From an uncultured Endomicrobiia bacterium (GTDB lineage Bacteria > Elusimicrobiota > Endomicrobiia > DTEH01), in NCBI GenBank assembly GCA_937936785.1, contig CALDDQ010000002.1:61192-125191 (forward strand): a stretch of DNA of 64,000 nt, written 5' to 3'. Below the pieces are notes generated by a model. It worked only from the letters and a program-made list of their open reading frames with translations. It was not told where the DNA came from and searched no databases. The position numbers and the translations under genes are program-made. This document shows positions 20,431 to 36,694 of this stretch, in pieces; position 1 is the first letter of the stretch; every line of letters starts with the position of its first letter.

Positions 20431-21849
20431 ATGGTAAAAGATATTTATAATCTATTAAAAAATAAATATTTTAGAAATTTTTTTTTATCATTTACATTTT
20501 TTTTATTTAATTATATTTTTGCAGATCAGATAAATGTGTATTTTACAGATCCTACCAACAGTAATCCTGCTGTGAGTCAAATTTCATCTAACCAAAAACC
20601 GATAGATTTTGCGTTACGCGATTTTGTTTTATCGGCTAACAGTGGAACTACAATGTATGTTTGTATTTATGAAGTCAATAACACAACAATCACTACTGCA
20701 ATAGATGAAGTTGTTAACAGAGGGGTGAAAGTTTATTCCATATTTAATGTTGCTGTTAATACATCTGTTTTTAAGACAAACTTTTATTACAAACAATACG
20801 GTTCTTCTGGTTCTCAATATATGCACAACAAATTTGTAGTAATAAAAAGTTCCAAAGTGTGGACGGGGTCATACAACTTTACAGTTTCTGCAACAAAAGA
20901 ACAAGACAACTTTGCTTTAGAAATATTTTCAAAAGATTTGGCTGACATTTATGAGCAAGCTTTTAATTATATATGGGCCTATGGTAGTACAACAATTTCT
21001 ACGGAAGTTGCAAAATTTAATGGAAAAGAAATATTTGTAGATGGAATTTCTATAAAAACATACTTTAATCCATATTCACAAAATCCAGAACTTGCTTCAG
21101 TATTAGTGCAAAATTGGTATGATTCTTCAAACGAAATCTCAAAAGTGAGTAGTTTATACTTTTCTGTTGCATGGTTTACAGAAAGCAGTATTGTAAACAC
21201 AATTAAAACTTTAAAATCAAAAGGCGTATTGGTAAAAGGTATAATTGATGATGATAGTAAAAACTTTGATACTTACTATTCTTTATGGAATTCTTCTGTT
21301 CCAATATATTTTGATGCTAGAAGAACATCTTTTGGAAGTGGTCTTATGCATCACAAGTTTTGTGTTTCTGACCCATACAAAGTTTCAGGCAAAGTTATTG
21401 CCGGTTCTGCTAACTGGTCCGATAGTGCATTAAGAAGCGGTAGAGACAAAAATTACGAAAATATTTTAGTGATACAATCACAAAGTGTAGCAGAAAAATT
21501 TTATTTAGAATATTTAAGATTATATGAAAAAATTAGCGATATGTCATATAATAGTTTATCACAAGAGATAATATCAAAAATTAAATTATATCCTAATCCA
21601 GTAAAAACAAGTTTTAAAATAAGTTTTATTCCATCAATTGCTATAAAAAAAATTGATTTTTATATATACTCTATTTATGGTAGAAAAATTTTTGAACAAA
21701 AGAATGTAAGTTTTTATCCTGAAATTGAAAATATTGTTTTGATACAATTACCCTTGGATATAAACGATGGTATATATTATTTTGTTATAGAAGCAAGTGT
21801 ATTCCAAGATAGAAAAAAATATTATCAAAAATTTGTTGTAGAAAAATGA
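20431..21849 (+). CDS. Secreted phospholipase D (HKD)-superfamily protein with T9SS type-A C-terminal sorting domain
   Basis: Signal peptide. Two HKD-like motifs: 'MHNKFVVIKSS...GSYNFT' (degenerate) and 'MHHKFCVSD...IAGSANWS'. C-terminal 'LYPNPVKTSF...IYSIYGRKI...GIYYFVIEA...KFVVEK' matches a T9SS C-terminal domain. Confidence 0.65.
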   Translation: MVKDIYNLLKNKYFRNFFLSFTFFLFNYIFADQINVYFTDPTNSNPAVSQISSNQKPIDFALRDFVLSANSGTTMYVCIYEVNNTTITTAIDEVVNRGVKVYSIFNVAVNTSVFKTNFYYKQYGSSGSQYMHNKFVVIKSSKVWTGSYNFTVSATKEQDNFALEIFSKDLADIYEQAFNYIWAYGSTTISTEVAKFNGKEIFVDGISIKTYFNPYSQNPELASVLVQNWYDSSNEISKVSSLYFSVAWFTESSIVNTIKTLKSKGVLVKGIIDDDSKNFDTYYSLWNSSVPIYFDARRTSFGSGLMHHKFCVSDPYKVSGKVIAGSANWSDSALRSGRDKNYENILVIQSQSVAEKFYLEYLRLYEKISDMSYNSLSQEIISKIKLYPNPVKTSFKISFIPSIAIKKIDFYIYSIYGRKIFEQKNVSFYPEIENIVLIQLPLDINDGIYYFVIEASVFQDRKKYYQKFVVEK

Positions 21850-22742
21850 AAAAAAAAATAACACACAAAATATTTTTTTTATTTATGGTAAACACTTTTT
21901 TTTGGTTAAACTTGAACGCAGATATTAACGAAATATTTTTATTGCCAAGTTCTATTGAAGAAAGTGGTTTAATGACATCATTATATTCTATAAGTCAAGA
22001 TATTAATTCTATTTTTTACAATCCAGCAGGGATTGCTATTAATAACATAAAACGTTTTGGGTTAAATTATTCAATTTTATTTGACAATATAAAATCTGGT
22101 AGTGTTATTTTAAACTTTCCAACAAAAAAAAATAATTATTCTTTTGGTATTAAATATAATGATTTAGGAGATATAACTTTTTATAATGATTATGGAGAAA
22201 AACTTGGTGTTAAAAATTTATATGCATACAGAATAAATATTGGTTTTGGTAATGAACTGTTTATTTCAGGGTTATATTTAGGAATAAGTTTAGGCGTACA
22301 AAATATAGTTTTAAACAAAGAATATTTTCTTACCACATTAAATATTGGCGGAATATATATAATTCCAATACAAGAAACAGAGGTGCATATCGGTAGTAAT
22401 ATTGGTTCACAATACAATTTTGTTGAAAAAAAAGTTATATTAACACCATCTTTAGGGATGAAATATTTTTTACCGGAATACAAAAGTTTTGTTTCTTTAG
22501 CATATAAAATTATAGATAGGACAGATTTTTATAGTTTTGGTTTAGAATTAAGTTTTATTAAAAATATAAATTTGATTTTAGGTTATGAAATATCTACTCA
22601 AATAAAAGATTGGAATAATAATTTTGGAATAGCAACTAAAATAAATTTAACTAAAAGGCAAGATTTTAGTATTGGGTTTGGATATAGAACGTTAAACAAT
22701 TTGGGAAATATTTTATCAACAAGTATAGAATTTAGATTATGA
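21846..22742 (+). CDS. Outer-membrane beta-barrel protein, PorP/SprF/PorQ-like (putative T9SS-associated)
   Basis: Signal peptide; 'IFYNPAGIAIN' matches the SprF/PorP NPAG motif; C-terminal '...SIEFRL'. Overlaps its neighbours by 4 nt on each side (operon). Confidence 0.45.
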   Translation: MKKKITHKIFFLFMVNTFFWLNLNADINEIFLLPSSIEESGLMTSLYSISQDINSIFYNPAGIAINNIKRFGLNYSILFDNIKSGSVILNFPTKKNNYSFGIKYNDLGDITFYNDYGEKLGVKNLYAYRINIGFGNELFISGLYLGISLGVQNIVLNKEYFLTTLNIGGIYIIPIQETEVHIGSNIGSQYNFVEKKVILTPSLGMKYFLPEYKSFVSLAYKIIDRTDFYSFGLELSFIKNINLILGYEISTQIKDWNNNFGIATKINLTKRQDFSIGFGYRTLNNLGNILSTSIEFRL

Positions 22743-23644
22743 AAAAAATTTTTTTAATAATAACATTGTTCATAAACAATATTTTTGCATTGCAACGAGC
22801 AGAATATTTGTTAAAAGAAGAATATGTTCGTTCACAGAAAGATTTGGAAGTAATATTTTTGGATGTAGGACAAGGAGATTGTTCTTTTATAAAAACACCT
22901 TCAGGAAAAACGTTACTGGTGGATGGTGGTGGTTCGCCATATTGGTTAGGGGAAGATGTGTGGGATCCTGGAAAAAATGTTATAATCCCGTATTTAAAAT
23001 CAAGAAATATTCAAGAACTTGACTATATTATAATATCACATCCTCATGGTGACCATTTTGGTGGTATTTTTGCAGTTTTAGAAAATATTAAAGTAAAAAC
23101 TTTCATTGACAACGGTTATGTTGAAGGAGATCCTAATTATAAAGACTTATTATTATTAGTTAAAAGAAAAGTATTGGTTTATGAACAAGTTAAAGAAGGT
23201 GATGAAATAAAATTAGACAAAGATATTTTTATTAGAGTATATTTTCCGCCAAAAAGAGGATTTCCATTTGAAGGTGGTAATAATTCTTCAATAATATTTA
23301 GTTTAATTTATAAAAATTTTTCTGTATTATTTACAGGAGATGCAGAAATGGATTTAGAAAATTATCTTATAAGTAAACATAAAAATTCAATAAATTCTAA
23401 TGTGTTAAAAATTCCGCATCATGGTTCAAGAACATCGTCCACAGTAAGATTTATTAAAACAGTAAATCCTGATGTTGGAATATTTTCAACTGGTAGAAAA
23501 AATCGTTTTGGTCACCCACATAGAGAAGTGGTATCAAGATATAGTAAGTTAAATGTAGATATTTACAACACAGCTGAAGAAGGTAATATTGTTGTGTTGT
23601 CAGACGGAGAAAGATTTACGGTATATTCAAATGTTGGTGAATAA
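22739..23644 (+). CDS. Exported MBL-fold metallo-hydrolase, ComEC/Rec2 C-terminal-domain-like
   Basis: Signal peptide; 'IIISHPHGDHFGG' HxHxDH motif; 'IPHHGS'. Confidence 0.7.
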   Translation: MKKIFLIITLFINNIFALQRAEYLLKEEYVRSQKDLEVIFLDVGQGDCSFIKTPSGKTLLVDGGGSPYWLGEDVWDPGKNVIIPYLKSRNIQELDYIIISHPHGDHFGGIFAVLENIKVKTFIDNGYVEGDPNYKDLLLLVKRKVLVYEQVKEGDEIKLDKDIFIRVYFPPKRGFPFEGGNNSSIIFSLIYKNFSVLFTGDAEMDLENYLISKHKNSINSNVLKIPHHGSRTSSTVRFIKTVNPDVGIFSTGRKNRFGHPHREVVSRYSKLNVDIYNTAEEGNIVVLSDGERFTVYSNVGE

Positions 23645-23721
23645 TTTTTGGTTATAAAAAATGTATTTTTTTATAATTATTGACAATTTATAAAAAATAA
23701 TTTATTAAAGACAACATTCTT

Positions 23722-23794
23722 GGGCCCGTAGCTCAGCTGGTAGAGCACCAGCCTTTTAAGCTGGCTGCCGAGAGTTCGAATCTCTCCGGGCTCA
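23722..23794 (+). tRNA. tRNA-Lys (anticodon UUU)
   Basis: Cloverleaf folded by hand: acceptor GGGCCCG/CGGGCUC (one G-U pair), D-arm GCUC/GAGC, anticodon stem CCAGC/GCUGG with loop CUUUUAA (anticodon at 23755-23757), T-arm GAGAG-UUCGAAU-CUCUC, discriminator A. CCA is not encoded. Confidence 0.9.
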
Positions 23795-24085
23795 GTTTTT
23801 ACTATCCGTTAAGTAGTGTGAAAATTTTTAAGTATTATCTTTTATAATCTATTTAAATTGATAGATTTGTATTTTAATAATTTTATAATACTTGCAAATA
23901 AAAAAACAAAAATATTTTTATCTATGAGATTGTTATAAATGGAAATTAATCTGTGGGTTTTTAATAAATTATTAAAAAAATCTAAAAAATAGTTTATATC
24001 ATAAATTTTTTATCAGTATTTTTTCTGGTCCATACTATACTTATTTTTTTAGTTATAAAAAATTCATTTATCTAATAGTCTTCAA

Positions 24086-24114
24086 AATATTATTGTTGAC
24101 TTTCTGTGTTAAAA
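24086..24114 (+). promoter_or_regulatory. Candidate sigma-70-type promoter for the BMC operon (TTGACT-N17-TATATT)
   Basis: TTGACT at 24086-24091, a 17-nt spacer, TATATT at 24109-24114, about 90 nt upstream of the first BMC gene. Found by eye only; Bacteroidota-type promoter rules may apply instead. Confidence 0.3.
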
Positions 24115-24200
24115 ATGATATATTTACAAGATAAAACGGTTTAAATTAAACAAAATATTTTTATTATAATTAGTGTTAACATTTATTGGAGGTAAGAGAT

Positions 24201-24509
24201 ATGCTTTTTGCACGGGTAATTGGCAATGTTGTTTGTACAAGAAAAGATGATAAATTGAAAGGTTCAAAATTGTTATTGGTCCAACCTGTAGATTTAGAAA
24301 ATAATCCTAAAGGGAATCCTATTGTGGCAGTTGACGCAGTTGGTGCAGGAGAAGGTGAGATGGTTTTGATAGTACAAGGTTCTTCTGCTCGTCAGACAAA
24401 GTATACTGAAGGTACACCTGTAGATTGTACAATTTTTGCAATTGTAGATTCAGCAGAACGTGATGGAAAAAAAGTTTTTAACAAAACACAGGATTATGAT
24501 AAAAGATAA
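24201..24509 (+). CDS. BMC vertex protein (BMC-P; EutN/PduN/CcmL family)
   Basis: 'MLFARVIGNVVCTRK...LLLVQPVD...AVDAVGAGEGEMVLIVQGSSAR'. GGAGG RBS 8 nt upstream of ATG 24201 (the ORF-track start 24186 lies further upstream). Confidence 0.85.
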   Translation: MLFARVIGNVVCTRKDDKLKGSKLLLVQPVDLENNPKGNPIVAVDAVGAGEGEMVLIVQGSSARQTKYTEGTPVDCTIFAIVDSAERDGKKVFNKTQDYDKR

Positions 24510-24552
24510 GGTTTAGTCGTTAACTAAAATTCTATGAAAATTAAACAGGAGA

Positions 24553-26010
24553 ATGTTTATGGTACAAATTACCGAATCTGAACTAAAAAATTTAGTAGAA
24601 CTTGTTTTACAGAGATTAGAACAAAGAAATATAAATTTTGATAATAGTCATACAATTGAGACAGGTATAAATTATTCTAAGTATCATTTATGTTTAACTG
24701 TAGAAGAAGCAGTTACAAGAGCAAAATACGCACAAAAAATATTTCAAAGTTTAGGTCTTGAGAAAAGAAAAGAAATTATAGATAACATCAGAAGAAAAAG
24801 TTTAGAAAATGCACAATATTTAGCACAAATTACTGAAGAAGAAACCAAAATGGGCCGTTGGGAAAATAAGGTAAAAAAAAATGTTTTAGCAGCAATAAAA
24901 ACGCCCGGTGTGGAAGATATTCAGCCTGTAACAGCATACACAGGAGATCATGGTTTGACTTTGGTTGAATATGCACCTTATGGAGTAATTGCTGCTGTTA
25001 CACCATCAACAAATCCAACTTCGACAATAATTAACAATTCAATTTCAATTTTATCAGCAGGAAATTCTGTAATTTTTGCTCCACACCCATCAGCAAAAAA
25101 ATGTTCTCAAGAAACTATAAGAATAATTTATGATGCAATAGTAGAATGTTCTGGTCCGAAAGATTTGATATTAACTATAGATCCGCCTTCTGTAGAAGCA
25201 ACGCAGTCATTATTAAAACATCCTGATATAAAATTGGTAGTTGTTACTGGAGGTCCAGCGATAGTGAAAGTAGCGATGCAGAGTGGTAAAAAAACGATAG
25301 CTGCGGGACCTGGAAATCCGCCTGTAGTAGTAGATGAAACAGCTGTGTTTCCAAAATGTGTAAATGACATAATAGATGGTTCGAGTTTTGATAACGGGAT
25401 TTTGTGTACTGCAGAAAAAGAAGTTATTTTAGTTGAAAGCGTAAAAGAAAAGTTTATATCATACATGCGCAGGGAGACTCGTGCTTACGAACTAACAAAA
25501 GAACAGATGGACCATTTAGCAAAACTTGCAATAAAAGAACCTGCAGGACCACACTGTAAAGAAGGTGTTATAAATCGTGATTTTGTAGGTAAAGATGCAA
25601 ATGTTATTGCTAAAAGTATTGGTTTAAATTTATCTGAAGATATAGTTTTATTATGGGGAGTTGTGCCTAATGATCATCCATATATATGGACAGAACAACT
25701 TATGCCAGTTTTACCCGTTACGGTAGTAAAAGACATTGATGAAGCAATAGATCTTGCAGTTAAGGTTGAAGGAGACAATCATCATACTTTTATAATACAT
25801 TCGTTAAATGTTGACACATTGACAAAAATGGCAAAAGCATGTCAAGGATCAATTTTGGTAAAAAACGGTCCTTCATTTATGGGGTTAGGTTTTGGTGAAG
25901 GATATGCTACCTTAACAATAGCGACACCTACAGGCGATGGTCTTACAAAAGCAAAAAATTTTACAAGACCATTAAGATGTGTTTTGGTAGATTATTTAAG
26001 GATAGTATAA
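24553..26010 (+). CDS. CoA-acylating aldehyde dehydrogenase (PduP/EutE-like), BMC-encapsulated type
   Basis: 485 aa ALDH fold; 'GILCTAEKE' catalytic-Cys region. N-terminal amphipathic 'SELKNLVELVLQRLEQ' resembles an encapsulation peptide. Confidence 0.85.
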   Translation: MFMVQITESELKNLVELVLQRLEQRNINFDNSHTIETGINYSKYHLCLTVEEAVTRAKYAQKIFQSLGLEKRKEIIDNIRRKSLENAQYLAQITEEETKMGRWENKVKKNVLAAIKTPGVEDIQPVTAYTGDHGLTLVEYAPYGVIAAVTPSTNPTSTIINNSISILSAGNSVIFAPHPSAKKCSQETIRIIYDAIVECSGPKDLILTIDPPSVEATQSLLKHPDIKLVVVTGGPAIVKVAMQSGKKTIAAGPGNPPVVVDETAVFPKCVNDIIDGSSFDNGILCTAEKEVILVESVKEKFISYMRRETRAYELTKEQMDHLAKLAIKEPAGPHCKEGVINRDFVGKDANVIAKSIGLNLSEDIVLLWGVVPNDHPYIWTEQLMPVLPVTVVKDIDEAIDLAVKVEGDNHHTFIIHSLNVDTLTKMAKACQGSILVKNGPSFMGLGFGEGYATLTIATPTGDGLTKAKNFTRPLRCVLVDYLRIV

Positions 26011-26032
26011 TTTATTTAATAAAAAAAAGTTT

Positions 26033-27358
26033 ATGGATGAGATAATTTATAGAATAAAAAGTGCTGGTATAGTAGGTGCAGGTGGTGCTGGGTTTCCAAC
26101 ATATTTTAAGTTAGAATCTGCAAAAGGTAAAGTTGATACTTATATAATCAATGCAGCCGAGTGTGAACCGTTATTAAAAGTTGACCAACAAATTTTAAAA
26201 GTTTATACAGAAGAAATTTTATCTGCAGCAAAGAAAGTTGGTGATTATCTCGGAGTGAAGAAGATTGTTATAGGAATAAAAGAAAAGTACAAAGATGCTA
26301 TAGAAGTTTTAGAAAAAAGTATCAAACAATATAATAATATAGAACTATATTTGTTAGAAAATTTTTATCCTGCAGGGGATGAGTTTACCTTAATAAACGA
26401 AGTTACAGGCAGGATTATTCCGGAGGGCGGGTTACCAGTAAATGTTGGTTGTGTGGTAAATAATGTTGTTACATTACTAAACATTTATAACGCAATTGAA
26501 AAAAATATTTCTGTTATTACGAGACCTGTGAGTATTGTAGGTGAAGTAAAAGATCCAAAAACTTTAATAGTTCCGGTTGGGACAATTATTAAGGATTTAA
26601 TAAAATTATGCGGTGGGACAACAGTGGAACATTTTGCGATTATTGATGGTGGTCCGATGATGGGAAAAGTTGTCTGTGAAGATGATGTTGTTACAAAACG
26701 TACTTCAGGTATACTTGTGTTACCTTTAGAACATCCTGTTGTTATTATGAAAACAGTATCTGAACATCAGTATTTGTATCAGATAAAATCTGCTTGTGAA
26801 CAATGCCAGGATTGTACCGAAATTTGTCCGAGGTATTTGTTGGGTCATGAATTTGAATGTCACAAGATTCAAAGATCTGTGTCATATCAAATAGACGAAT
26901 TTTTAACACAAGCGTTTTTATGTTGTGAATGTGGACTTTGTGATTGGGTTTGTCCTATGTATCTATTACCAAGAAAAACAAACCAGTTAGTGAAACAAAT
27001 TTTAATAAAAAAAGGAATAAAAAATTCGCATAACAAAAAACCTGATAATGTTCGTGCAACAAAAGAATATAGAAAAGTGCCTGTAGAACGTTTAATTTCA
27101 AGATTTAATTTAACAGAATATTTATCAAAAGAAGCACCTTTAGAATTAGATGTTAAAGAATTTTCTGTTGTTAAAATACCTTTGGTACAACACATTGGCG
27201 CAAAACCTGTTTCTGTGGTAAAAGTTGGAGATGAAGTAAAAAAGAATGATTTGATATCTGTCATAGATGATTACAAATTAGGGACAAATCATCATGCATC
27301 AATAGATGGTAAAATAATTTTAGTTAATGACGAACATATTGTAATAAGCAAAAATTAG
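26033..27358 (+). CDS. pduS: PduS-like / RnfC-like Fe-S flavoprotein (BMC-associated)
   Basis: 'SAGIVGAGGAGFPTYFKL...INAAECEPLL' RnfC/PduS N-terminal motif. Two 4Fe-4S motifs: 'CEQCQDCTEICP' and 'CCECGLCDWVCP'. Confidence 0.8.
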   Translation: MDEIIYRIKSAGIVGAGGAGFPTYFKLESAKGKVDTYIINAAECEPLLKVDQQILKVYTEEILSAAKKVGDYLGVKKIVIGIKEKYKDAIEVLEKSIKQYNNIELYLLENFYPAGDEFTLINEVTGRIIPEGGLPVNVGCVVNNVVTLLNIYNAIEKNISVITRPVSIVGEVKDPKTLIVPVGTIIKDLIKLCGGTTVEHFAIIDGGPMMGKVVCEDDVVTKRTSGILVLPLEHPVVIMKTVSEHQYLYQIKSACEQCQDCTEICPRYLLGHEFECHKIQRSVSYQIDEFLTQAFLCCECGLCDWVCPMYLLPRKTNQLVKQILIKKGIKNSHNKKPDNVRATKEYRKVPVERLISRFNLTEYLSKEAPLELDVKEFSVVKIPLVQHIGAKPVSVVKVGDEVKKNDLISVIDDYKLGTNHHASIDGKIILVNDEHIVISKN

Positions 27359-27372
27359 TGGAGGCATAATTT

Positions 27373-27927
27373 ATGCAATCATCATTAGTATTATTAGAAT
27401 TAAATTCAATTGCTCGTGGGCTAGAAACTGCAGATGCAATGTGCAAAGTTGCCACAGTAAATTTGATTGATGCATATGCAATTTGTCCTGGGAAATATAT
27501 CATAATAATAAACGGTTTATTAGCAGATGTGCAGTCATCTTTAAACAAAGGTATAGAAGTTGCGCAGCAACATTTAATTGATAAGTTGTTAATACCTAAC
27601 ATTAGTCCAAAAATTATTCCTGCAATATTAGGAACGTCAAAGATAAGACAAAATATAATTTCGTTAGGTTCTATAGAAACATTTTCAGCAGCAAGTTGTA
27701 TTGTTGCATCAGATTTAGCATCGAAAAAAGCAGATGTTGATTTGATAGAAATACGATTAGCAAAAGGTTTAGGTGGAAAATCGTATGTAACATTATGTTC
27801 TGATGATGTAGGTGCAGTAAAAAGTGCAATTAACGAAGCTGTAATTTATACCAAAAAAAATGGTTCACTGGTACAAAAAACAGTTATTCCACAGATACAT
27901 CCTGATATGTTAAAAACAATTTTATAG
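27373..27927 (+). CDS. pduT: Tandem-BMC-domain shell protein (BMC-T), PduT-like with Fe-S-ligand cysteine
   Basis: 184 aa, the same length as PduT. Two BMC domains ('LVLLELNSIARGLETADAMCKVATV' and 'SLGSIETFSAASCIVASDLASKKADV'). 'AICPGK' corresponds to the PduT [4Fe-4S]-ligating Cys. Confidence 0.8.
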   Translation: MQSSLVLLELNSIARGLETADAMCKVATVNLIDAYAICPGKYIIIINGLLADVQSSLNKGIEVAQQHLIDKLLIPNISPKIIPAILGTSKIRQNIISLGSIETFSAASCIVASDLASKKADVDLIEIRLAKGLGGKSYVTLCSDDVGAVKSAINEAVIYTKKNGSLVQKTVIPQIHPDMLKTIL

Positions 27928-27948
27928 GGATTATGATGTGAGGGAAGT

Positions 27949-28401
27949 ATGAATATAGTAATAGGTTCAGACCATGGAGGGTTTAAATTAAAAGAAATAT
28001 TAAAAAAGTTTTTGCAATTACAAAATCATACTGTGGCAGATTTTGGTTGTTATTCGGAGGAACCTGTTGATTGGACAGACATTGCATTATTAGTAGCAGA
28101 ATCGGTAAAGGACAGATATTATGATTTTGGTATTTTGATTGACGGGTTTGGTGGAGCTGTATGTCTTGCAGCAAACAAGGTTAAAGGAGTTCGTGCAGTT
28201 TGTGCATATAACGAATTTTCAGCTAGATTAGCAAAAGAACATGACGATGCAAACATACTATGTCTTGGTGGCAAGACAGTTGGTGATTTGGAAAATATTG
28301 AAATCGTGAAATCCTTTTTGTCAGCACTGCCTGCGAAAGATGAAAAATATTTACGTAGGTTAAAAAAGTTGGATGATATTGAAAAAAAATATTTTAAATA
28401 A
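27949..28401 (+). CDS. Ribose-5-phosphate isomerase B / LacAB-family sugar-phosphate isomerase, paralogue 1 (divergent)
   Basis: 'IVIGSDHGGFKLK'; 'GILIDGFGGAVCLAANKVKGVRAV' (Asp where RpiB normally has the catalytic Cys). Confidence 0.75.
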   Translation: MNIVIGSDHGGFKLKEILKKFLQLQNHTVADFGCYSEEPVDWTDIALLVAESVKDRYYDFGILIDGFGGAVCLAANKVKGVRAVCAYNEFSARLAKEHDDANILCLGGKTVGDLENIEIVKSFLSALPAKDEKYLRRLKKLDDIEKKYFK

Positions 28402-28407
28402 AAAATT

Positions 28408-28875
28408 ATGAACTTAGCAATAGCTTCAGATCATACAGGGTTTGAGATAAAAAAAAATCTTGTTAAAAAACTTAATAATGAAGGGTATAATGTAATAGAT
28501 TTTGGTTGTTATAGTGATGAAAGTTGTGATTATCCTGATTATGCAATAAAAGTATCAAAAGCTGTTCAAAGAAAAGATGCAAAATTTGGGATATTAATTT
28601 GTGGTAGTGGTATAGGGATGAGCATTGTTGCAAACAAATTTAAAGGTATTCGTGCAGGATTGTGTTTTTCGGAAGAAACAGCCAAACTTATTGCAGAACA
28701 CAATTTCGCAAACATAATATGTTTACCTGCAAGAATAAAAGTTTGTGGTGAGAATATATCCGAGGATAAACTTTATTTATGGATAAAGATCTGGTTAACA
28801 ACTTCAAATTCAACTGAAGATAGGCATATTAACAGAATAAAAAAAATTGAGTTGTTAGAGAAAGAGATTTTGTAA
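28408..28875 (+). CDS. rpiB: Ribose-5-phosphate isomerase B (RpiB/LacAB family), paralogue 2 (canonical)
   Basis: 'LAIASDHTGFEIK'; 'GILICGSGIGMSIVANKFKGIRA' with the conserved Cys. Confidence 0.8.
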   Translation: MNLAIASDHTGFEIKKNLVKKLNNEGYNVIDFGCYSDESCDYPDYAIKVSKAVQRKDAKFGILICGSGIGMSIVANKFKGIRAGLCFSEETAKLIAEHNFANIICLPARIKVCGENISEDKLYLWIKIWLTTSNSTEDRHINRIKKIELLEKEIL

Positions 28876-28900
28876 AAAGTTTTTTAAAGAGGCTAATGTT

Positions 28901-29299
28901 ATGATAAAAAAAATGTATTTATTAACAATGATACTTTTTCAAACAATTGTCTATGGACAAGAAAATTTAGATGATATTATAAAATTGTTAAACTCAGGAC
29001 AAAATGACAATGCAATAAACATGTTAAAATCTTTGGGTTCTGATAATGAAATATTGTTTGCGATAGCATATCTTGAGAAAAAAGATTTTTCTAATGCTAA
29101 AAGTTATGCTTTAAAAAGTTTTTCAAAAAATTCTAGTATTGTGGTTGCAAGTTATATTTTAGCACAGATATATGAAGAGCAGAAAGATTATTTAACTGCA
29201 ATAAAATATTGGGACAACGTATATCGTAATGCAAAAGATAAGACAGTGAAAATGTTAGCAAAAAAACAGTGTGAAGTTTTAAAAGTTTTAACAAAATGA
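28901..29299 (+). CDS. Small exported TPR-like protein
   Basis: Signal peptide 'MIKKMYLLTMILFQTIVYGQ'; helical repeat-like composition. No family recognised. Confidence 0.35.
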   Translation: MIKKMYLLTMILFQTIVYGQENLDDIIKLLNSGQNDNAINMLKSLGSDNEILFAIAYLEKKDFSNAKSYALKSFSKNSSIVVASYILAQIYEEQKDYLTAIKYWDNVYRNAKDKTVKMLAKKQCEVLKVLTK

Positions 29300-29877
29300 A
29301 AATAATATATAATACAACTGCCAAATTTTTAATTTTATTAACCATGTTGTTTTATGTTGGTTGTACGCTAACGCCAAGAGGTGTGTTTTATAAAGATTTT
29401 GACCCGAGAAGAATTTCAGTTATTTCAGTAGGACAATTTACAACTTCAAGTGGTAATGCTATTAGTGACTATGTGAAAAATTTAATGATACAAAATTTGT
29501 TAGCAAGAAACTTTACTGTAAAAGAAGTTAACTCGGAAGATGTAGATTATGTATTATTAGGGAGTGTAACAAAATTTTTGCCAGAGAAAAAATTTTTAGT
29601 ATACACAGGGACAAACAAACAACAAGTAATGTTAGGTGGTCCTTTGACAGAAATTAGTGGTAGTAATGTGTACAACATTGGCACTGCATTTGGTGTTTCG
29701 GATGGAGAAATAGTTGTTACTAACGCTACAGTAGGAGTTAGTGCGAGGTTAGTAGAAAAAAGAACAGGTAATGTTGTCTGGAGCAGTTCATTTTCGTACG
29801 AAGCGCTAACTGCAGATACTGCAGCAGAAATTGTTGCAAATTATTTGATTACTTCATTGACAGGGTTAAGAAGATAG
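29296..29877 (+). CDS. Putative lipoprotein
   Basis: Signal peptide with lipobox-like 'LFYVGC' followed by a Ser/Thr/Gly-rich beta-type domain. No family recognised. Confidence 0.4.
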   Translation: MKIIYNTTAKFLILLTMLFYVGCTLTPRGVFYKDFDPRRISVISVGQFTTSSGNAISDYVKNLMIQNLLARNFTVKEVNSEDVDYVLLGSVTKFLPEKKFLVYTGTNKQQVMLGGPLTEISGSNVYNIGTAFGVSDGEIVVTNATVGVSARLVEKRTGNVVWSSSFSYEALTADTAAEIVANYLITSLTGLRR

Positions 29878-29902
29878 CTCTAAACAAGGAGAATAAAAAA
29901 TT

Positions 29903-30193
29903 ATGCAAGCAGGGATAGTAGTAGGCCGTGTTTGGGCAACACAAGAATATGAAAGTTTGAAAGGAAAAAAATTGTTGTTAGTATTACCAACAACATGGGA
30001 TAAAAAAATTAAATCTAATGATCCGATTGTTATGGTAGATACAGTAGGTGCGGGTGCAGGTGAGTTTATTTTTTATGTTTCATCTAGAGAAGCAGCAGTA
30101 GCTTGTGGTGGCAACAGTTTAAAAGATACACCTCCGGTAGATGCAGCTATTGTTGGAATAATTGATGGAATAAATTTAACAGAGGAATTATAA
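29903..30193 (+). CDS. BMC vertex protein (BMC-P; EutN/CcmL family), paralogue 2
   Basis: 'MQAGIVVGRVWATQEYESLKGKKLLLV...MVDTVGAGAGEF'. Confidence 0.85.
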   Translation: MQAGIVVGRVWATQEYESLKGKKLLLVLPTTWDKKIKSNDPIVMVDTVGAGAGEFIFYVSSREAAVACGGNSLKDTPPVDAAIVGIIDGINLTEEL

Positions 30194-30492
30194 TGTTTAT
30201 AGCAAAAGTTGTAGGAAATCTTTGGGCTACAAGAAAACATAAAAGTTTAGAAGGTGGAAAACTTTTATTAGTAAAAAAGTGTGATGGTTTAACAGGCAAG
30301 TTTTACAATGAAGAACCATCTTTAGCAATTGACATAAATATTGGAGCAGGTATTGGCGATATTGTTTTAGTTATGGATGAAGGCAGTTCTGCTAGACAAA
30401 TTCTAAACAACAAAATTGCTCCTGTTAGAACAATAGTATGTGGAATTATTGATTTGGTAAATTCTGGCAAACAAACAAAAAAATGGCATTAA
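30193..30492 (+). CDS. BMC vertex protein (BMC-P; EutN/CcmL family), paralogue 3
   Basis: 'MFIAKVVGNLWATRKHKSLEGGKLLLV...AIDINIGAGIGDIVLV'. Start overlaps the upstream stop by 1 nt. Confidence 0.8.
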   Translation: MFIAKVVGNLWATRKHKSLEGGKLLLVKKCDGLTGKFYNEEPSLAIDINIGAGIGDIVLVMDEGSSARQILNNKIAPVRTIVCGIIDLVNSGKQTKKWH

Positions 30493-30530
30493 ATGTTAAG
30501 ACAAAAAAAAATTAAGGAGTTAAATAGATT

Positions 30531-32027
30531 ATGAAAAACTTGTTATGTATTTTAATGGGTGGAGACAGAAATTTGCAAACAGCGTTTAATGCAGTGAAAG
30601 AGTTTACAAAAATTTTTATAGTAAAAATTTTTGTAAGCAAATCAGCAACACAAATTATTGGCACAGAAAAGATAAAGTCAGAATTAAGAGGTTGTGAAAT
30701 TATTATACCAAACGGAGAATATCTTGACCCACATAAATTATCTAATTGGGCAGATGTTTTAGTTATTCCGATTTTAACTTTGAACGGTTTGGCAAAAATT
30801 GTAAATCTTATGCCAGATAGTCAACAGATTAATATTACGATTGGTTGTCTGGAAAAAGGTATTCCAGTGATTGTATCAAAGGATAGTGTATTTTGTTCTT
30901 GTTATCCAGACCCTTCTGTGAACAGTCCATTATATAGAAAAGTAGAACAAAATTTGTCAGAGTTAAAATCATTAGGGATAACAGTTTCTACAGGTGAAAA
31001 TTTAGTTAACAATGTTTTAATACAATGTGGTATGGTAGAAAGTGTGATAAAACCATCTTCAGGTGGGAAAATTTTTTCTAACAACAAAATAATTAATGTA
31101 ACTTCAACTACACTTGGAAAAAATTTTGTTTCTGATAATGTAAATGTTACGATAGGTTCAGCAGGAAAAATATTTTCTAAGCCTCTAACAAAAAGTGGTA
31201 ATATTATTGATGATATTTGTGTCGCATTTAAGTTGAGTGACACATCACAAAATTTAGAATGTTTAAGTTGTGGAAAATGCGTAGAACGAAAAAAAAGATC
31301 CGTAGCACAAGTAATAAATGCTGGTGCAGATAGAATTGCTGCATATGATGTAAAAGATGTTGGGAAAGAAATTGCTCCATTAATAGATCACACCTTACTT
31401 AAAGCAAATGCAACTCAAGAAGAGATTGTAAAATTGTGTGAAGAAGCGAAGAAATATAAGTTTGCTTCTGTATGTGTCAATCCCGCATATGTAAATTTGT
31501 GTAAGCAACTATTAGGATCAAGTTCAGTAAAGGTATGCACAGTGATAGGGTTTCCGTTGGGAGCAACAACTTCGACTGTCAAAGCAATAGAAACAAAAGA
31601 AGCAATTGCAAACGGTGCAGATGAAGTTGATATGGTAATAAATATAGGTGCACTAAAATCAGGAAATTATCAATTGGTTTTTGATGACATTAAATCTGTT
31701 AGGGAAGCCTCTAGAGGAAAAATTTTAAAGGTAATAATTGAAACTGCATATTTAACTAAAGAAGAAAAAATTAAAGCATGTGAATTGTCCAAAGAAGCAG
31801 GTGCAGATTTTGTAAAAACATCAACAGGATTTGGACCTTCAGGTGCAACAGCAGAAGATATTGCATTAATGAAATTTGTTGTTGGACCTAAAATTGGTGT
31901 TAAAGCTTCTGGTGGAATACGTTCATTAGATGATGCAGTAAAAATGGTGAAAGCAGGAGCGACACGAGTAGGAGCTTCTGCTTCAGTAGCAATTGTAAGA
32001 GGTGAAGTTGGTAAAAGTAAATATTAA
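30531..32027 (+). CDS. deoC: Fusion protein: N-terminal degenerate flavoprotein (HFCD/CoaC)-fold domain plus Cys-rich linker plus C-terminal class I deoxyribose-phosphate aldolase (DeoC)
   Basis: C-terminal about 230 aa are near-canonical DeoC ('[11 protein letters not shown]', '[11 protein letters not shown]', Schiff-base Lys in '[10 protein letters not shown]', '[10 protein letters not shown]'). N-terminal 'CILMGG...[18 protein letters not shown]...LKSLGITV' resembles the flavoprotein fold but lacks the FMN-binding signatures. Linker carries 'ECLSCGKC'. Confidence 0.8.
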
Positions 32028-32107
32028 AAAAACAGTTAACTAAAAAATGACAGTAAATAAAATTTTATAAAAAACCCGTGGAAAAATTTTTTATACAGGA
32101 GGAATTT

Positions 32108-32404
32108 ATGGAAGAGAAAGATGCAGTAGGAATGATAGAAACGCGCGGAATGGTTGGTATGGTAGAAGCCACAGATGCAATGGTAAAAGCGGCAAAGGTT
32201 AGACATATTGGGTATGAAAAGGTTGGGACAGGTTTAGTAACAACTTTTGTAAGAGGAGAAGTTGGAGCAGTGAGAGCTGCAGTTGAATCTGGTGCTGCCG
32301 CAGCACAGAAAGTTGGTGAGTTAGTTTCTGTCCATGTAATTCCGCGTCCACATGAGTATTTGGAAAAATTGTTGTCTAAAATAGAAAAAGATTTTGAAAA
32401 ATAA
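32108..32404 (+). CDS. BMC hexamer shell protein (BMC-H; PduA/EutM-like)
   Basis: 'AVGMIETRGMVGMVEATDAMVKAAKV...GEVGAVRAAVESG'. Start taken at ATG 32108, which follows a GGAGG RBS; the ORF-track start 32078 is a GTG. Confidence 0.85.
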   Translation: MEEKDAVGMIETRGMVGMVEATDAMVKAAKVRHIGYEKVGTGLVTTFVRGEVGAVRAAVESGAAAAQKVGELVSVHVIPRPHEYLEKLLSKIEKDFEK

Positions 32405-32455: not shown

Positions 32456-32770
32456 ATGAATAAAGAAGTTATTGTTGAGATTATTATTGAAGAACTTAAG
32501 AAACTTGGTTATTATGTTAATACAGAATCTCAATCAACAAATTTGGCTAAAAATTATAAATCAGGTTTTTTTACCAAAGAAAAATATATAAAAAGTGTAA
32601 CATCATTACCACCGGGTAAAAAATTAATTACAGAATATGATGTTAGACAGTATATTAAACTAAAAAATAACACAAAAGAATTTATAGTTCCAGAAAATGT
32701 TATTATAGGTCCTTTAGCAGAAGATTTAATAAATAGTTTAGAACTAAAGATTGTAAAGAAAAAAGGTTAA
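32456..32770 (+). CDS. Hypothetical protein (104 aa) immediately downstream of BMC-H
   Basis: ORF only; no recognisable motifs. Confidence 0.3.
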   Translation: MNKEVIVEIIIEELKKLGYYVNTESQSTNLAKNYKSGFFTKEKYIKSVTSLPPGKKLITEYDVRQYIKLKNNTKEFIVPENVIIGPLAEDLINSLELKIVKKKG

Positions 32771-32849: not shown

Positions 32850-33929
32850 TTGATGAACATAGACCAACTGTTGCAGGTTATGATAAAAACAGGGATTTCG
32901 GATATACATTTTAAATCAAACTCTGCCCCGTTAATAAGAATGAATGGGAAACTTATACCAACACAATATGAAAAGTTTACAAATGAATCAATACAAAAAA
33001 TGGCATATAGTTTAATGAACGATGTTCAAAAAAAAATTTTTGAGCAAGAAAACGAATTAGATTTTGCATATTCAATTTCTGGCTATGCAAGATTTAGAGT
33101 TAATATTTATAAACAAAAAAATTCTGTAGCTTTAACATTAAGAGTAATACCATTAGATTTAAAAACATTTCAAGATTTACATTTACCAAACGATGTTTTG
33201 ACAAAATTATGTAATGAATCACGGGGGTTAGTTTTAATAACAGGAGTGACAGGTTCAGGTAAAACAACGACATTAAATGCGATGTTGAATTTTATAAACG
33301 AAAAGTATCAATATAATATAATTACTGTAGAAGATCCAATTGAATATTATCATATTGACAAAAAATCTTCAATTTCTCAACGGGAAATAGGTAGTGATAC
33401 AAAATCGTTCAAGAATGCTTTAAGATACGTTTTAAGACAAGATCCAGATGTTGTAGTAATAGGAGAAATGCGCGATTTTGAAGCAATTTCTGCCGGGATA
33501 ACAGCAGCAGAAACAGGGCACTTAGTATTATCAACTATACATACTATAGATGCAGTACAAACAATTGATAGAATAATTGATACATATCCGCCACATCAAC
33601 AAAAACAAGCAAGGATTCAGTTATCTAATGTTTTAAAAGGTATTATTGGTCAAAGACTATGTTTATTAAATTCAGGCGAAGGAAGAATTCCTGCAACAGA
33701 AGTGTTAATAGCAACATCATTAGTTAGAAAATTAATTTTAGAAGATAAACCTCAAGAACTTTATAAAGCCATGGAAAATGGTGCATATTATTTAATGCAT
33801 ACATTTGACCAGGCATTATTAAAATTACATATTGATGGTGTAATTTCTTTTGAAGAAGCGATGGACAAAGCTACTAATCCAGAAGATTTACAATTAAAAC
33901 TTCGTGGAATTTCACAATCAAAAAGTTAA
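32850..33929 (+). CDS. pilT: Type IV pilus retraction ATPase PilT
   Basis: 'ISDIHF', Walker A 'GVTGSGKTTTL', Asp box 'NIITVEDPIEY', His box 'GHLVLSTIHT'; 359 aa. Confidence 0.85.
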   Translation: MMNIDQLLQVMIKTGISDIHFKSNSAPLIRMNGKLIPTQYEKFTNESIQKMAYSLMNDVQKKIFEQENELDFAYSISGYARFRVNIYKQKNSVALTLRVIPLDLKTFQDLHLPNDVLTKLCNESRGLVLITGVTGSGKTTTLNAMLNFINEKYQYNIITVEDPIEYYHIDKKSSISQREIGSDTKSFKNALRYVLRQDPDVVVIGEMRDFEAISAGITAAETGHLVLSTIHTIDAVQTIDRIIDTYPPHQQKQARIQLSNVLKGIIGQRLCLLNSGEGRIPATEVLIATSLVRKLILEDKPQELYKAMENGAYYLMHTFDQALLKLHIDGVISFEEAMDKATNPEDLQLKLRGISQSKS

Positions 33930-34789: not shown

Positions 34790-36694
34790 ATGATAACTTC
34801 TTGGGAGTTAAAATTTTCTCCTGTTGAAAAATATTCCAACAGGTATAGATTAAAGGTAAATTGTTCTAATGAAGATGTTGAAGAAATTAGTAGTTTTTTA
34901 AAAGACGAGTTAAAACTTGATATATCACCTGCGTTTCAATCTTTAAGTGGCGAATATAACTGGGGAATTTATATTTATGATTTGAAGAATGATGAAAAAC
35001 AAAAACTCGTAGAAAAAATGTTTTTTGTATGTAAAAATGGTTTTGTAGAGGATAAAGAAAAAATGCAACCAAATGTAGAAAAAACAAATGTTGCAGATGT
35101 TTCACCCGAGCTAGGAAATATTTTATCAGATTTAGTAAAAAATATGACAGAAAAAGCTGTTGCTACAAATTCAGAAAAAGAAACTTTTGTAAATGTAAAA
35201 ACTATTGAAGAAGAATATCAAGGGTTACCTTTAGTTCCAAGATATACATTTGAAAATTTTGTAGTAGGTCCAAATAATAGGTTTACTCACGCAGCAGCAT
35301 TGGCTGTTGCAGAAAATCCTGGCAAAACTTATAATCCATTATTTATTTATGGTGGAGTAGGTCTTGGTAAAACACATTTAATGCAAGCTGTAGGGCATTT
35401 TTTAAAAACAAAAAAACCTCTAAGTAAAATCATGTATATAACTTCAGAAAAATTTGTAAGTCAAGTTATAGAAGCTATAAGAAAAGGTGGAATTCGTAAT
35501 TTACGCGATTCGTATCGTGATATAGATTTACTTTTGATTGATGATATACAATTTATGGCAGATTCAGAATCTACTCAAGAAGAATTTTTCCATATATTTA
35601 ACACATTACACCAATATGGCCGGCAGATAGTAATGACTAGTGATAGACCACCAAAATTACTTACAACTTTAGAGGATAGATTAAGGTCAAGGTTTGAGTG
35701 GGGCTTAATTGCAGATATAAAATCTCCTTCATTAGAGACACGTGTCGCAATTTTAAAACGCAAAGGTGAAGAAGAAAATGTTAATTTAGATGATAATATT
35801 TTGTTATACATAGCATCAAAACTTAAGTCCAACATTCGTGAATTAGAAGGTTTTTTAAAACGAATAAATGTGTATGCAAATTTGACGAATCAGCCAGTAG
35901 ATATTACTTTAGTTAAACAATTAATGAGCGAATTGTTACCAAAAGAAGAACTTACTGATGAAGAAAAAAGTATTTTAGAAAAAAGTAATGAAGAGACATC
36001 TTCTTCGACTAAGGATGTTGTATCTATTCCCAAACCGAAACCCAAGGTTCAAACATTTAAATCAGCAACACAAAATGACAGTCGTGATAATGTAAAAACT
36101 GTTGTTCAAAAAGTAAAACCAATTTCAATTGAGAACATATATAAATCATCTAAAGAAATTCCTAATACAGTATCAAAACCAGAATCAAAAAATATAGAAG
36201 AACAAAAATTTGTTGTAGAACAACAAAATAAGATTTCTCCACAACAGAATGAAGATAAACTAATAAAGATAGATGAAGAAAAATTTTATCAGGACTACGA
36301 ATCTGCAGTTAATGTAGTTGAAGTATCATTTTTTTATCCGGAGGGTAAGTTAGAAGAGTTGTATGTAGTAAAACAGAAGTTTGCTGAAATTATCAAAAAA
36401 CATAATTTAAGATACAAAATAGTTACAGCTTTTGATAGGCCATATGCATTAGAAAACATAAACTATAAAATGTTTTTAGAATTATGTAAAACTAATAAAA
36501 TTGATGTTTGTGTTTTAATCTCGCCACAACCCGGCGAGATAGTTTCTACGGAAGAATTTTATGAAAACATAGCTCCGTTAATGGAAGCAGGAGAGATTAT
36601 CTTTGAATTCATTCCTTGGCGTGATTTAACTAAAGAATATAGATATTTAAACCTAGCATTAGACATTGCATTGTCAAAATTTAAATTAGAATAA
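34790..36694 (+). CDS. DnaA-like AAA+ ATPase: canonical DnaA domain III, but no DnaA domain IV (DNA-binding HTH); instead a charged linker and an unrecognised C-terminal domain
   Basis: Domain III motifs: 'RYTFENFVVGPNNRFTHAAALAVAENPGKTYNPLFIYGGVGLGKTHL', 'IDLLLIDDIQF', 'QEEFFHIFNTLHQYGRQIVMTSDRPP', 'LEDRLRSRFEWGLIADI', 'SNIRELEGFLKRI'. No 'GGRDHTTV'-type signature anywhere C-terminal. Not followed by dnaN. Confidence 0.6.
   Translation: MITSWELKFSPVEKYSNRYRLKVNCSNEDVEEISSFLKDELKLDISPAFQSLSGEYNWGIYIYDLKNDEKQKLVEKMFFVCKNGFVEDKEKMQPNVEKTNVADVSPELGNILSDLVKNMTEKAVATNSEKETFVNVKTIEEEYQGLPLVPRYTFENFVVGPNNRFTHAAALAVAENPGKTYNPLFIYGGVGLGKTHLMQAVGHFLKTKKPLSKIMYITSEKFVSQVIEAIRKGGIRNLRDSYRDIDLLLIDDIQFMADSESTQEEFFHIFNTLHQYGRQIVMTSDRPPKLLTTLEDRLRSRFEWGLIADIKSPSLETRVAILKRKGEEENVNLDDNILLYIASKLKSNIRELEGFLKRINVYANLTNQPVDITLVKQLMSELLPKEELTDEEKSILEKSNEETSSSTKDVVSIPKPKPKVQTFKSATQNDSRDNVKTVVQKVKPISIENIYKSSKEIPNTVSKPESKNIEEQKFVVEQQNKISPQQNEDKLIKIDEEKFYQDYESAVNVVEVSFFYPEGKLEELYVVKQKFAEIIKKHNLRYKIVTAFDRPYALENINYKMFLELCKTNKIDVCVLISPQPGEIVSTEEFYENIAPLMEAGEIIFEFIPWRDLTKEYRYLNLALDIALSKFKLE

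Follow-up and report, generated by a model that had tools for sequence, protein, structure and literature searches.

Sugar-phosphate-utilising (SPU) bacterial microcompartments (BMCs) are among the most widespread and least characterised metabolosomes, and their proposed role is to allow anaerobes to use DNA debris as food. SPU loci are defined by pfam01791 and pfam02502 proteins, an aldehyde dehydrogenase (AldDH) and a triplet of BMC-P shell proteins, two of them encoded side by side, and this triplet is stated to be universal in the class (Sutter 2021; Dwyer 2024). By shell-protein clade, the adjacent pair of SPU loci is grey and orange and the third member green, blue or purple. The SPU1 subtype is confined to Elusimicrobia and combines the AldDH with a phosphotransacylase (PTAC), TIM (pfam00121), a PduS/PduT pair and two BMC-H proteins, which carry KAAK/PRPH and KAA(N/D)/PQPH motifs, respectively (Sutter 2021; Dwyer 2024); split SPU1 loci are already documented (Sutter 2021). 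Among the other subtypes, one standard BMC-H is the norm in published SPU3, 5, 6 and 7 loci, PTAC is absent from most SPU2, 3, 5 and 6 loci, which typically have a BMC-T^dp that passes acetyl-CoA (Dwyer 2024), and alcohol dehydrogenase occurs only in some SPU2, 4 and 6 loci (Dwyer 2024). Here we compare with these systems an SPU locus in a 64,000-nucleotide stretch (the window) of contig CALDDQ010000002.1 from an uncultured Endomicrobiia bacterium. The window is very AT-rich (GC 0.27), its convincing genes all lie on the + strand, and the locus is a tightly packed run of them 3' of a tRNA-Lys gene and a 405-bp AT-rich spacer. Our reading, to which we give a probability of about 75%, is that this DNA holds the main locus for a microcompartment of the SPU1 type, from a low-GC Endomicrobia-like bacterium, with the 5' module in a satellite.

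Family assignment with Pfam and NCBIfam profiles recovers, all on the + strand and with unchanged coordinates, the inventory drawn up in a first-pass annotation of this DNA: one BMC-H, a PduT-like BMC-T, three BMC-P, an AldDH, a PduS-like protein, two RpiB proteins and DeoC. Three further conserved genes of the locus, encoding a TPR protein, a lipoprotein and a 104-aa protein, had been overlooked. The shell genes score far above the gathering scores of the PF00936 and PF03319 models, the comparison that the annotation had itself named as able to overturn it. Its assignment to the SPU class stands as well, with DeoC, RpiB, an acylating AldDH that carries an encapsulation peptide (EP) and shell genes including the BMC-P triplet all present. 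BMC-P1 (24201-24509; 102 aa; PF03319, 1.8e-33), the solitary member of this triplet of pentameric vertex proteins, has a GGAGG ribosome-binding site 8 nt before its ATG. BMC-P2 (29903-30193; 96 aa; PF03319, 2.4e-23) and BMC-P3 (30193-30492; 99 aa; PF03319, 2.8e-24) form the adjacent pair, the start of the second overlapping the stop of the first by one base, and BMC-P1 lies 5.4 kb further 5'. The three are 33-49% identical to one another; BMC-P1 shares 82-83% identity with its counterparts in L083 and L096 (related loci are denoted here by L numbers), and BMC-P2 is 66-76% identical to its orthologues. The BMC-H (32078-32404; PF00936, 8e-27) likely has its true start at the ATG at 32108, which gives 98 aa, the length called in L093, a separately assembled sequence from run ERR9287890 that is 99.987% identical to the window over 15,197 bp. 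It carries the KAAK/PRPH interface of SPU1 BMC-H2 and is 77-89% identical to the BMC-H2 of the relatives. Three BMC-P paralogues for a single BMC-H had been singled out as unusual; since the triplet is universal in SPU loci and a single BMC-H is normal in SPU3, 5, 6 and 7, these counts are ordinary for the class.

The gene order of the relatives is directly comparable. L083, L085 and L091 (= L087) read TIM-PTAC-BMC-H1-BMC-P1-AldDH-PduS-BMC-T-RpiBa-RpiBb-TPR-lipoprotein-BMC-P2-BMC-P3-DERA-BMC-H2, and the window cluster is this same array beginning exactly at BMC-P1. The shared proteins are 31-91% identical to those of the window (the three 5' proteins being compared with L083), with L083 mostly at 71-82%. 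In L083, DERA and BMC-H2 are separated by a GGDEF gene. On the 3' side of BMC-H2, the 104-aa gene follows in both L085 and L091; PilT, an interposed gene of unknown function and a DnaA-like gene come next in L085, and L091 ends before PilT. In all three loci BMC-H1 has KAAN/PQPH and BMC-H2, like the window BMC-H, has KAAK/PRPH, as published for SPU1. The nearest named relatives of this AldDH stem from Endomicrobia/Elusimicrobiota (74% identity), and the best named homologues of AldDH and DERA come from metagenome-assembled genomes (MAGs) of Endomicrobia, Endomicrobiia and Elusimicrobiota, which fits the range of SPU1.

The locus thus shares with SPU1 the phylum, the placement of DERA and RpiB near two adjacent BMC-P genes with the third apart, the N-terminal EP of AldDH, the KAAK/PRPH BMC-H and a DERA whose N-terminus is extended by something other than an EP, and it would join the documented split loci. 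It differs in that the window's main locus is without TIM, PTAC and the KAA(N/D)/PQPH BMC-H, which are probably in the satellite. The TPR, lipoprotein and EP-bearing 104-aa genes occur in conserved order and find no mention in the available portions of the published SPU1 descriptions. The likeness to SPU2, 3, 5, 6 and 7 is looser: these share the core of DERA, AldDH and BMC-P triplet, and many have a single BMC-H and no PTAC or alcohol dehydrogenase, but a BMC-T^dp, missing from the window, is usual in the PTAC-less ones, their RPI mostly begins with an EP and a linker of ~75 aa, and their DERA extension is ~70 aa long, against a 280-aa extension with a flavoprotein-fold domain in the window. 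We place the locus in the known SPU1 subtype, probably in split form, and the earlier claim of an unusual gene complement is largely not supported: it fails for the BMC-P count and for alcohol dehydrogenase and holds only for the absence of TIM, PTAC and BMC-H1 relative to SPU1, of which the missing PTAC is the one real departure.

That no PduL-type phosphotransacylase or alcohol dehydrogenase is encoded in the window, as the first-pass annotation had noted, is borne out by Pfam. Neither PF06130 nor PF00465 nor further shell genes were found elsewhere in the 64 kb, where the search covered each of the 40 remaining ORFs of 110 aa or longer; what it found there were unrelated genes, among them those for polysaccharide and pyrimidine synthesis and a dcw cluster. 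Likewise, tblastn with the proteins of the relatives detected no TIM, PTAC or BMC-H1, nor remnants of them, in the window beyond its own BMC-H. A search with the L083 PTAC retrieved instead a 63%-identical PTAC, P0259, on a 101-kb (101,343-bp) contig with the same sources as the window proteins (NCBI, Logan, ENA). The Logan copy of this contig, L105, comes from run ERR9287890, the run of L093. Its gene order is a NupC-type transporter, a small DUF7577-like ORF, GAF-GGDEF, TIM, PTAC and BMC-H1, followed by unrelated housekeeping genes. The PTAC bears an N-terminal helix, MEEKIVDEITKKVIERI, and BMC-H1 is a 99-aa protein with KAAN/PQPA. Relative to L083, the L105 proteins are 78% (TIM), 63% (PTAC) and 96% (BMC-H1) identical, comparable to the 47-82% of the window genes. 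At a GC of 0.283, L105 is indistinguishable from the window in tetranucleotide composition, with a Pearson correlation of 0.995 and a Euclidean distance of 0.0075; the quarters of the window against its remainder give 0.991-0.994 and 0.009-0.017, and the loci of related organisms reach at most 0.985 and at least 0.0138.

Because L105 stems from the same run, matches the window in composition and ends where the window locus starts, we regard the two as probably the halves of one split SPU1 locus in one genome. A single BMC-H and a PTAC that bears an EP can be understood only if the compartment itself is encoded at another place, which argues that L105 is the satellite; SPU7, for comparison, places DERA together with two BMC-P in a satellite. 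PTAC, TIM and the charge-complementary BMC-H would then not have been lost but split from the main locus, by a rearrangement that fell between BMC-H1 and BMC-P1. The earlier statement that a CoA recycling partner is missing accordingly holds for the window, from which PTAC is absent, and probably fails for the genome, given the run and composition of L105.

The AldDH (24553-26010) is of the CoA-acylating EutE/PduP type (PF00171; NF011927, 597 bits against a cutoff of 403); the database version of the protein starts at 24559 (483 aa). In look-ups of exact sequences, the AldDH version that begins with MVQ matched an indexed contig, and the DERA fusion and the 104-aa protein matched none. Its N-terminus, SELKNLVELVLQRLEQ, contains an amphipathic encapsulation helix, LKNLVELVLQRLEQ, and then a linker of ~25 aa, with the Aldedh domain beginning at aa 50. 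The EP-like helix that had been proposed here is indeed amphipathic, and the AldDH has the N-terminal EP that characterises all SPU subtypes but SPU6; encapsulation itself is predicted. The next gene (26033-27358) encodes a PduS-type metabolosome NADH dehydrogenase (MNdh) with PF01512, PF10531, PF13534 and PF13375 in order, that is, Complex1_51K (FMN/NADH), SLBB, a 4Fe-4S dicluster domain and a C-terminal RnfC_N sandwich, and with both CxxCxxCxxxCP motifs. Adjacent to it is the PduT-type BMC-T^S (27373-27927), whose tandem BMC domains match PF00936 twice (1.2e-37) and whose pore cysteine motif is AICPGKY; its best NCBIfam match, TIGR02526 eut_PduT, falls below the cutoff of that family. PduS homologues have been re-assigned as MNdh, whose electrons go to a [4Fe-4S] cluster that sits in the pore of a neighbouring PduT-type BMC-T, marked by a CP(G/S)K motif (PMC11626177). 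MNdh adjoins BMC-T in 97% of MNdh loci, and 361 BMC loci have the MNdh/BMC-T^SE pair without alcohol dehydrogenase (PMC11626177). The window has the same four domains, an adjacent tandem-BMC protein with CPGK and a co-occurring AldDH, again without alcohol dehydrogenase, and shows no difference from the published module among the features compared; activity and complex formation have been shown for the Clostridium botulinum proteins only. For want of an alcohol dehydrogenase, the NAD recycling partner had also been called missing. This does not hold, as the intact adjacent PduS/PduT pair is the published NAD+-regenerating module.

The aldolase gene (30531-32027) encodes a 498-aa DeoC/DERA fusion (TIGR00126 deoC, 299 bits against a cutoff of 117), of which the C-terminal ~220 aa (31371-32027) give a confident TIM-barrel model. 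In the alignment of DERA homologues D367, K429 and K458 are invariant and Y498 is nearly so; we take these as the counterparts of the catalytic Asp, both Lys and the Tyr at the C-terminus in E. coli DERA. Many DERA homologues begin with a typical EP helix, MDKNLVEKITKEV, which is absent from the window DERA and its closest relatives, where the upstream space is too short for one. In RpiBa (27949-28401; 150 aa; PF02502, 3.6e-43) the catalytic Cys is replaced by Asp (ILIDGFG), which is also the case in LacA, and RpiBb (28408-28875; 155 aa; PF02502, 5.5e-50) keeps the Cys (ILICGSG), so the two resemble the LacA/LacB pairing. When aligned with the paralogues of the relatives, the RpiBa position is Ser in L096. 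The shell-less relative L099 keeps only a Cys-type RpiB. Neither RpiBa nor RpiBb has the N-terminal extension of EP and linker reported for SPU RPIs. The first-pass annotation had considered that DeoC and RpiB might be unrelated housekeeping genes. Their catalytic domains are orthodox in both settings, but the window genes lie among shell genes in an order conserved across divergent genomes (GC 0.27-0.53), and the DERA has its 280-aa extension. In a genome scan with the whole DERA fusion, 80 housekeeping DeoC loci and no SPU1 relatives were recovered; of the 80, one (L058) has shell genes and none has the N-domain or the 104-aa protein.

Taken together, these genes suggest a route that we propose as follows. 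Deoxyribose 5-phosphate (dR5P) from the breakdown of DNA or deoxynucleosides would enter through the pores of a shell built from BMC-H, the PduT-type BMC-T and the three BMC-P. DERA would cleave it into glyceraldehyde 3-phosphate plus acetaldehyde, and the encapsulated AldDH would convert the acetaldehyde to acetyl-CoA and NADH. MNdh would re-oxidise the NADH, its electrons passing through Fe-S clusters to the [4Fe-4S] cluster in the PduT pore and on to the outside of the shell; because MNdh/BMC-T would export electrons in this way, no alcohol dehydrogenase would be needed. The satellite-encoded PTAC, PduL-type and with its own encapsulation helix, would regenerate CoA and release acetyl phosphate.

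Several observations weigh against this reading. L105 most likely belongs to the same genome, an assignment drawn wholly from run co-occurrence, composition and gene complementarity, and related low-GC Endomicrobia-like organisms (L083, L099) occur in the same study. A second BMC-T^S without pore cysteine, an SPU1 trait, was not found: the window, L083, L085, L091 and L096 have one tandem-BMC gene each. The proposed function is extrapolated from SPU6 DERA in vitro and Clostridium MNdh rather than from SPU1 compartments, and the Cys-less SPU6 RPI is published to bind DERA while having little R5P (ribose 5-phosphate) isomerase activity. Finally, the loci of two Endomicrobia MAGs, L096 and L097, also have no TIM or PTAC, so that versions truly without PTAC may exist. 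The window could then be a genuinely streamlined SPU locus with one BMC-H and no encapsulated phosphotransacylase, in which acetyl-CoA and CoA cross the shell or a housekeeping enzyme is used, and L105 would come from a co-occurring relative. In line with this, the window lacks PTAC, TIM and BMC-H1, no PTAC homologue was found on its 169,103-bp contig among the matches listed, and most SPU2, 3, 5 and 6 loci do without PTAC. However, PTAC-less SPU types typically have BMC-T^dp, of which there is none here, and the shared run, the window-like composition and the exact complementarity of L105, as well as the need of its BMC-H1 and EP-bearing PTAC for a BMC elsewhere in the genome, are hard to square with it; we consider streamlining unlikely. 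Decay of the locus, with the compartment no longer made and its genes heading for loss, is very improbable. Erosion does occur in the clade: in L098 (9164-13971) PduS is frameshifted, BMC-T is truncated and the locus stops after RpiBa, and L099-L101 are shell-less remnants with the order GGDEF-TIM-PTAC-RpiBb-TPR-lipoprotein-DeoC-PilT, in which PTAC has no helix and DeoC no 280-aa extension (9220-12899 in L099). The missing encapsulation helix of the window DERA could be read in the same way. Against this, all 14 genes of the window locus are intact and full length relative to their orthologues, the tight operon-like spacing is kept, and the DERA Lys/Asp/Tyr, the Fe-S motifs, the PduT pore cysteine and the BMC-H interface motifs are conserved.

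The substrate could be another or an additional sugar phosphate besides dR5P, the LacA/LacB-like RpiB heteromer being the true isomerase that feeds the aldolase. The conservation of two paralogues, one Asp-type and one Cys-type, resembles the LacAB heteromer, a pairing that is relevant because the Cys-less SPU6 RPI binds DERA yet is almost inactive, and the published discussion, which finds the role of RPI unexplained, allows for other sugar phosphates. The aldolase, on the other hand, is a match to the deoC equivalog with all DERA catalytic residues, and SPU6 DERA is active on dR5P in vitro (Dwyer 2024). The neighbours of related loci also fit a nucleoside-catabolic role: a nucleoside transporter in L103 and L105, and an adenine deaminase, a transketolase and a metalloenzyme-family gene in L001 and L085, the last of which is possibly a phosphopentomutase in L085. 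We think a different or additional substrate improbable and keep to dR5P as the substrate of an SPU1 compartment with its PTAC on a satellite.

The locus itself adds little to the BMC catalogue. Its lesson is that where a BMC locus seems incomplete, satellite contigs should be looked for before anything unusual is read into it. The low-GC clade as a whole contains complete (L083), TIM/PTAC-less (L096, L097), split (window and L105), eroding (L098) and shell-less (L099-L101) states, and this series appears to record loss of the compartment. Such a series within one lineage could be used to study microcompartment loss and the shedding of encapsulation signals. Leads on SPU cargo assembly are offered by the flavoprotein-fold domain of DERA, its possible EP-bearing 104-aa partner and the LacA/LacB-like RpiB pair.

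The 280-aa extension of the window DERA has two parts. The N-domain (aa 1-170; 30531-31040) has an HFCD/UbiX-type flavoprotein (Rossmann-like) fold, modelled by AlphaFold2 at a pLDDT of 94.7. Foldseek against the PDB matches it to PPC decarboxylase (1mvn, 8e-9, TM ~0.7) and also to UbiX, EpiD and CoaC, and PF02441 matches 13 of 16 homologous N-domains (best 6e-10); by sequence, neither the DERA N-region nor the 104-aa protein has a significant match in the PDB. The linker (aa 171-280; 31041-31370) is predicted to be disordered, with a pLDDT below 50 over aa 171-274. It contains two strict copies of [ST][AG]GK[IV]F and a looser TTLGKNF; the homologues have one to three copies of the motif, many of them one and the most distant none. 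A cysteine cluster, C230-x13-C244-x2-C247-x2-C250, looks like a metal or Fe-S site: among 27 homologues C247 and C250 are invariant and C230 nearly so, and a subgroup of homologues has CPHC in place of the cluster.

The 104-aa protein (32456-32770) has no Pfam match and consists of an EP-like amphipathic helix, IVEIIIEELKKL, which a linker joins to a conserved domain at the C-terminus. Its gene is always 3' of BMC-H2 and is syntenic in L001, L085, L087 and L096, and the family is small, with 17 representatives among 1.84 billion proteins. Both this protein and the DERA N-domain match the TIGR02536 eut_hyp profile, the N-domain at positions 52-141 (26.3 bits, 5e-6) and the 104-aa protein at positions 123-206, the C-terminal third (26.2 bits, 5e-6). 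At ~26 bits against a cutoff of 152.6, they are related to eut_hyp without being members. The likeness to eut_hyp, a flavoprotein-related accessory protein of EUT2 and SPU4, lies in the PF02441/HFCD fold of the DERA N-domain and in the N-terminal amphipathic helix that SPU4 eut_hyp and the 104-aa protein have in common. The difference is that in the window the two matching pieces belong to different proteins, the one being part of the DERA fusion and the other free-standing. We also considered that the 104-aa protein might be a partial duplicate of the DERA fusion, which hhalign rejects (probability 1%).

From this we put forward a tentative and somewhat doubtful joint idea, that DERA in the SPU1 clade is packaged by a two-piece adaptor derived from eut_hyp in place of an EP of its own, and that the locus states in the clade represent stepwise loss of a metabolosome in which encapsulation signals are shed after the shell. 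An HFCD/UbiX domain, which forms trimers or dodecamers in its relatives, would be fused to a dimeric DERA, with the four-Cys site of the linker possibly binding an Fe-S cluster or a metal, and the EP helix would be on the separate 104-aa protein. The pieces would cross-link DERA into a cargo core and tether it to the shell, and they might add a redox or flavin function.

Between RpiBb and BMC-P2 lie two conserved passenger genes of the SPU1 loci of this clade. The first (28901-29299) encodes a small TPR protein with a signal peptide and weak TPR matches, and has orthologues in the same position in L083, L085, L087, L090, L091, L096 and L099. The second (29296-29877) encodes a lipoprotein that is weakly GNA1162/PelC/CsgG-like: all four alignment members match PF05643 weakly, the PDB search by sequence gave nothing significant, and entry 4hrv was returned at E = 0.013. 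The lipobox Gly-Cys is invariant in the lipoprotein alignment (VGC in the window). The gene is syntenic in all related loci with sequence at that place except L098, whose locus ends after RpiBa, and a metagenome scan with the alignment found four loci only. Because both proteins are exported, they are not lumenal cargo; both are conserved in SPU1 loci of divergent genomes and are retained even in the shell-less L099.

A GAF-GGDEF gene of the diguanylate cyclase type recurs before TIM-PTAC, in L105 (1592-2656), L083 (369-1481), L099 (8014-9093) and L103 (3896-4966), and lies 3' of the NupC-type nucleoside transporter gene in L103 and L105. The GGDEF-TIM-PTAC arrangement of L083, L099 and L103 is therefore suggested to be ancestral, and the GAF-GGDEF protein is a possible regulator of the system.

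The locus is compact and begins after a tRNA gene, as had been observed before. The tRNA-Lys(UUU) gene (23721-23795, +; ARAGORN; Rfam tRNA, 73 bits) is its 5' boundary in the window genome. Because L093 reproduces the junction, spanning the metallo-beta-lactamase gene, tRNA-Lys and BMC-P1, the boundary is real and no assembly artefact. An integration island at tRNA-Lys was considered and rejected: the tRNA 3' end has no second copy in the window, no direct or inverted repeats of note occur there, and the composition is native, the quarter with the locus correlating at 0.994 with the rest. In the 405-bp spacer before BMC-P1, a weak promoter-like site, TTGACT-17-TATATT with TG (24096-24124, +), is not significant on its own, as the consensus scan gave 55 sites against 45 expected, and Rfam (E <= 1) found no riboswitch or other RNA element in this leader.

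Just 5' of tRNA-Lys is an operon-like trio (20431-23644), composed of a NucT/PLD-family nuclease (20431-21849) that carries a type IX secretion system (T9SS) sorting tail, a protein of unknown function and 298 aa (21846-22742) and a ComEC/Rec2 metallo-beta-lactamase domain that is secreted and stands alone (22739-23644; positions 439-663 of TIGR00361). With PilT (32850-33929, +; Pfam and NCBIfam) just 3' of the locus, after the 104-aa gene, a theme of extracellular-DNA degradation and uptake adjoins the deoxyribose-phosphate compartment; the adjacency of the trio to the SPU locus is not kept in L083, L085 or L096. Further 3' (34790-36694) is a 634-aa DnaA-like protein that matches the DnaA equivalog over profile positions 33-366 of 437 (365 bits); it is without the DNA-binding domain IV and has an unrelated C-terminal region of ~220 aa in its place. 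Its gene is conserved 3' of PilT and a 230-276-aa protein of unknown function in L001, L085, L096 and L099, the intervening protein being absent in L001, and the window shows no GC-skew switch. Elsewhere in the window, 19264-20376 and 56489-58342 encode predicted secreted proteins with T9SS (Por_Secre_tail) domains or without a Pfam match, among them a GH113-like glycoside hydrolase with a T9SS tail. These proteins point to the presence of a type IX secretion system in the Elusimicrobia-like genome of the window.

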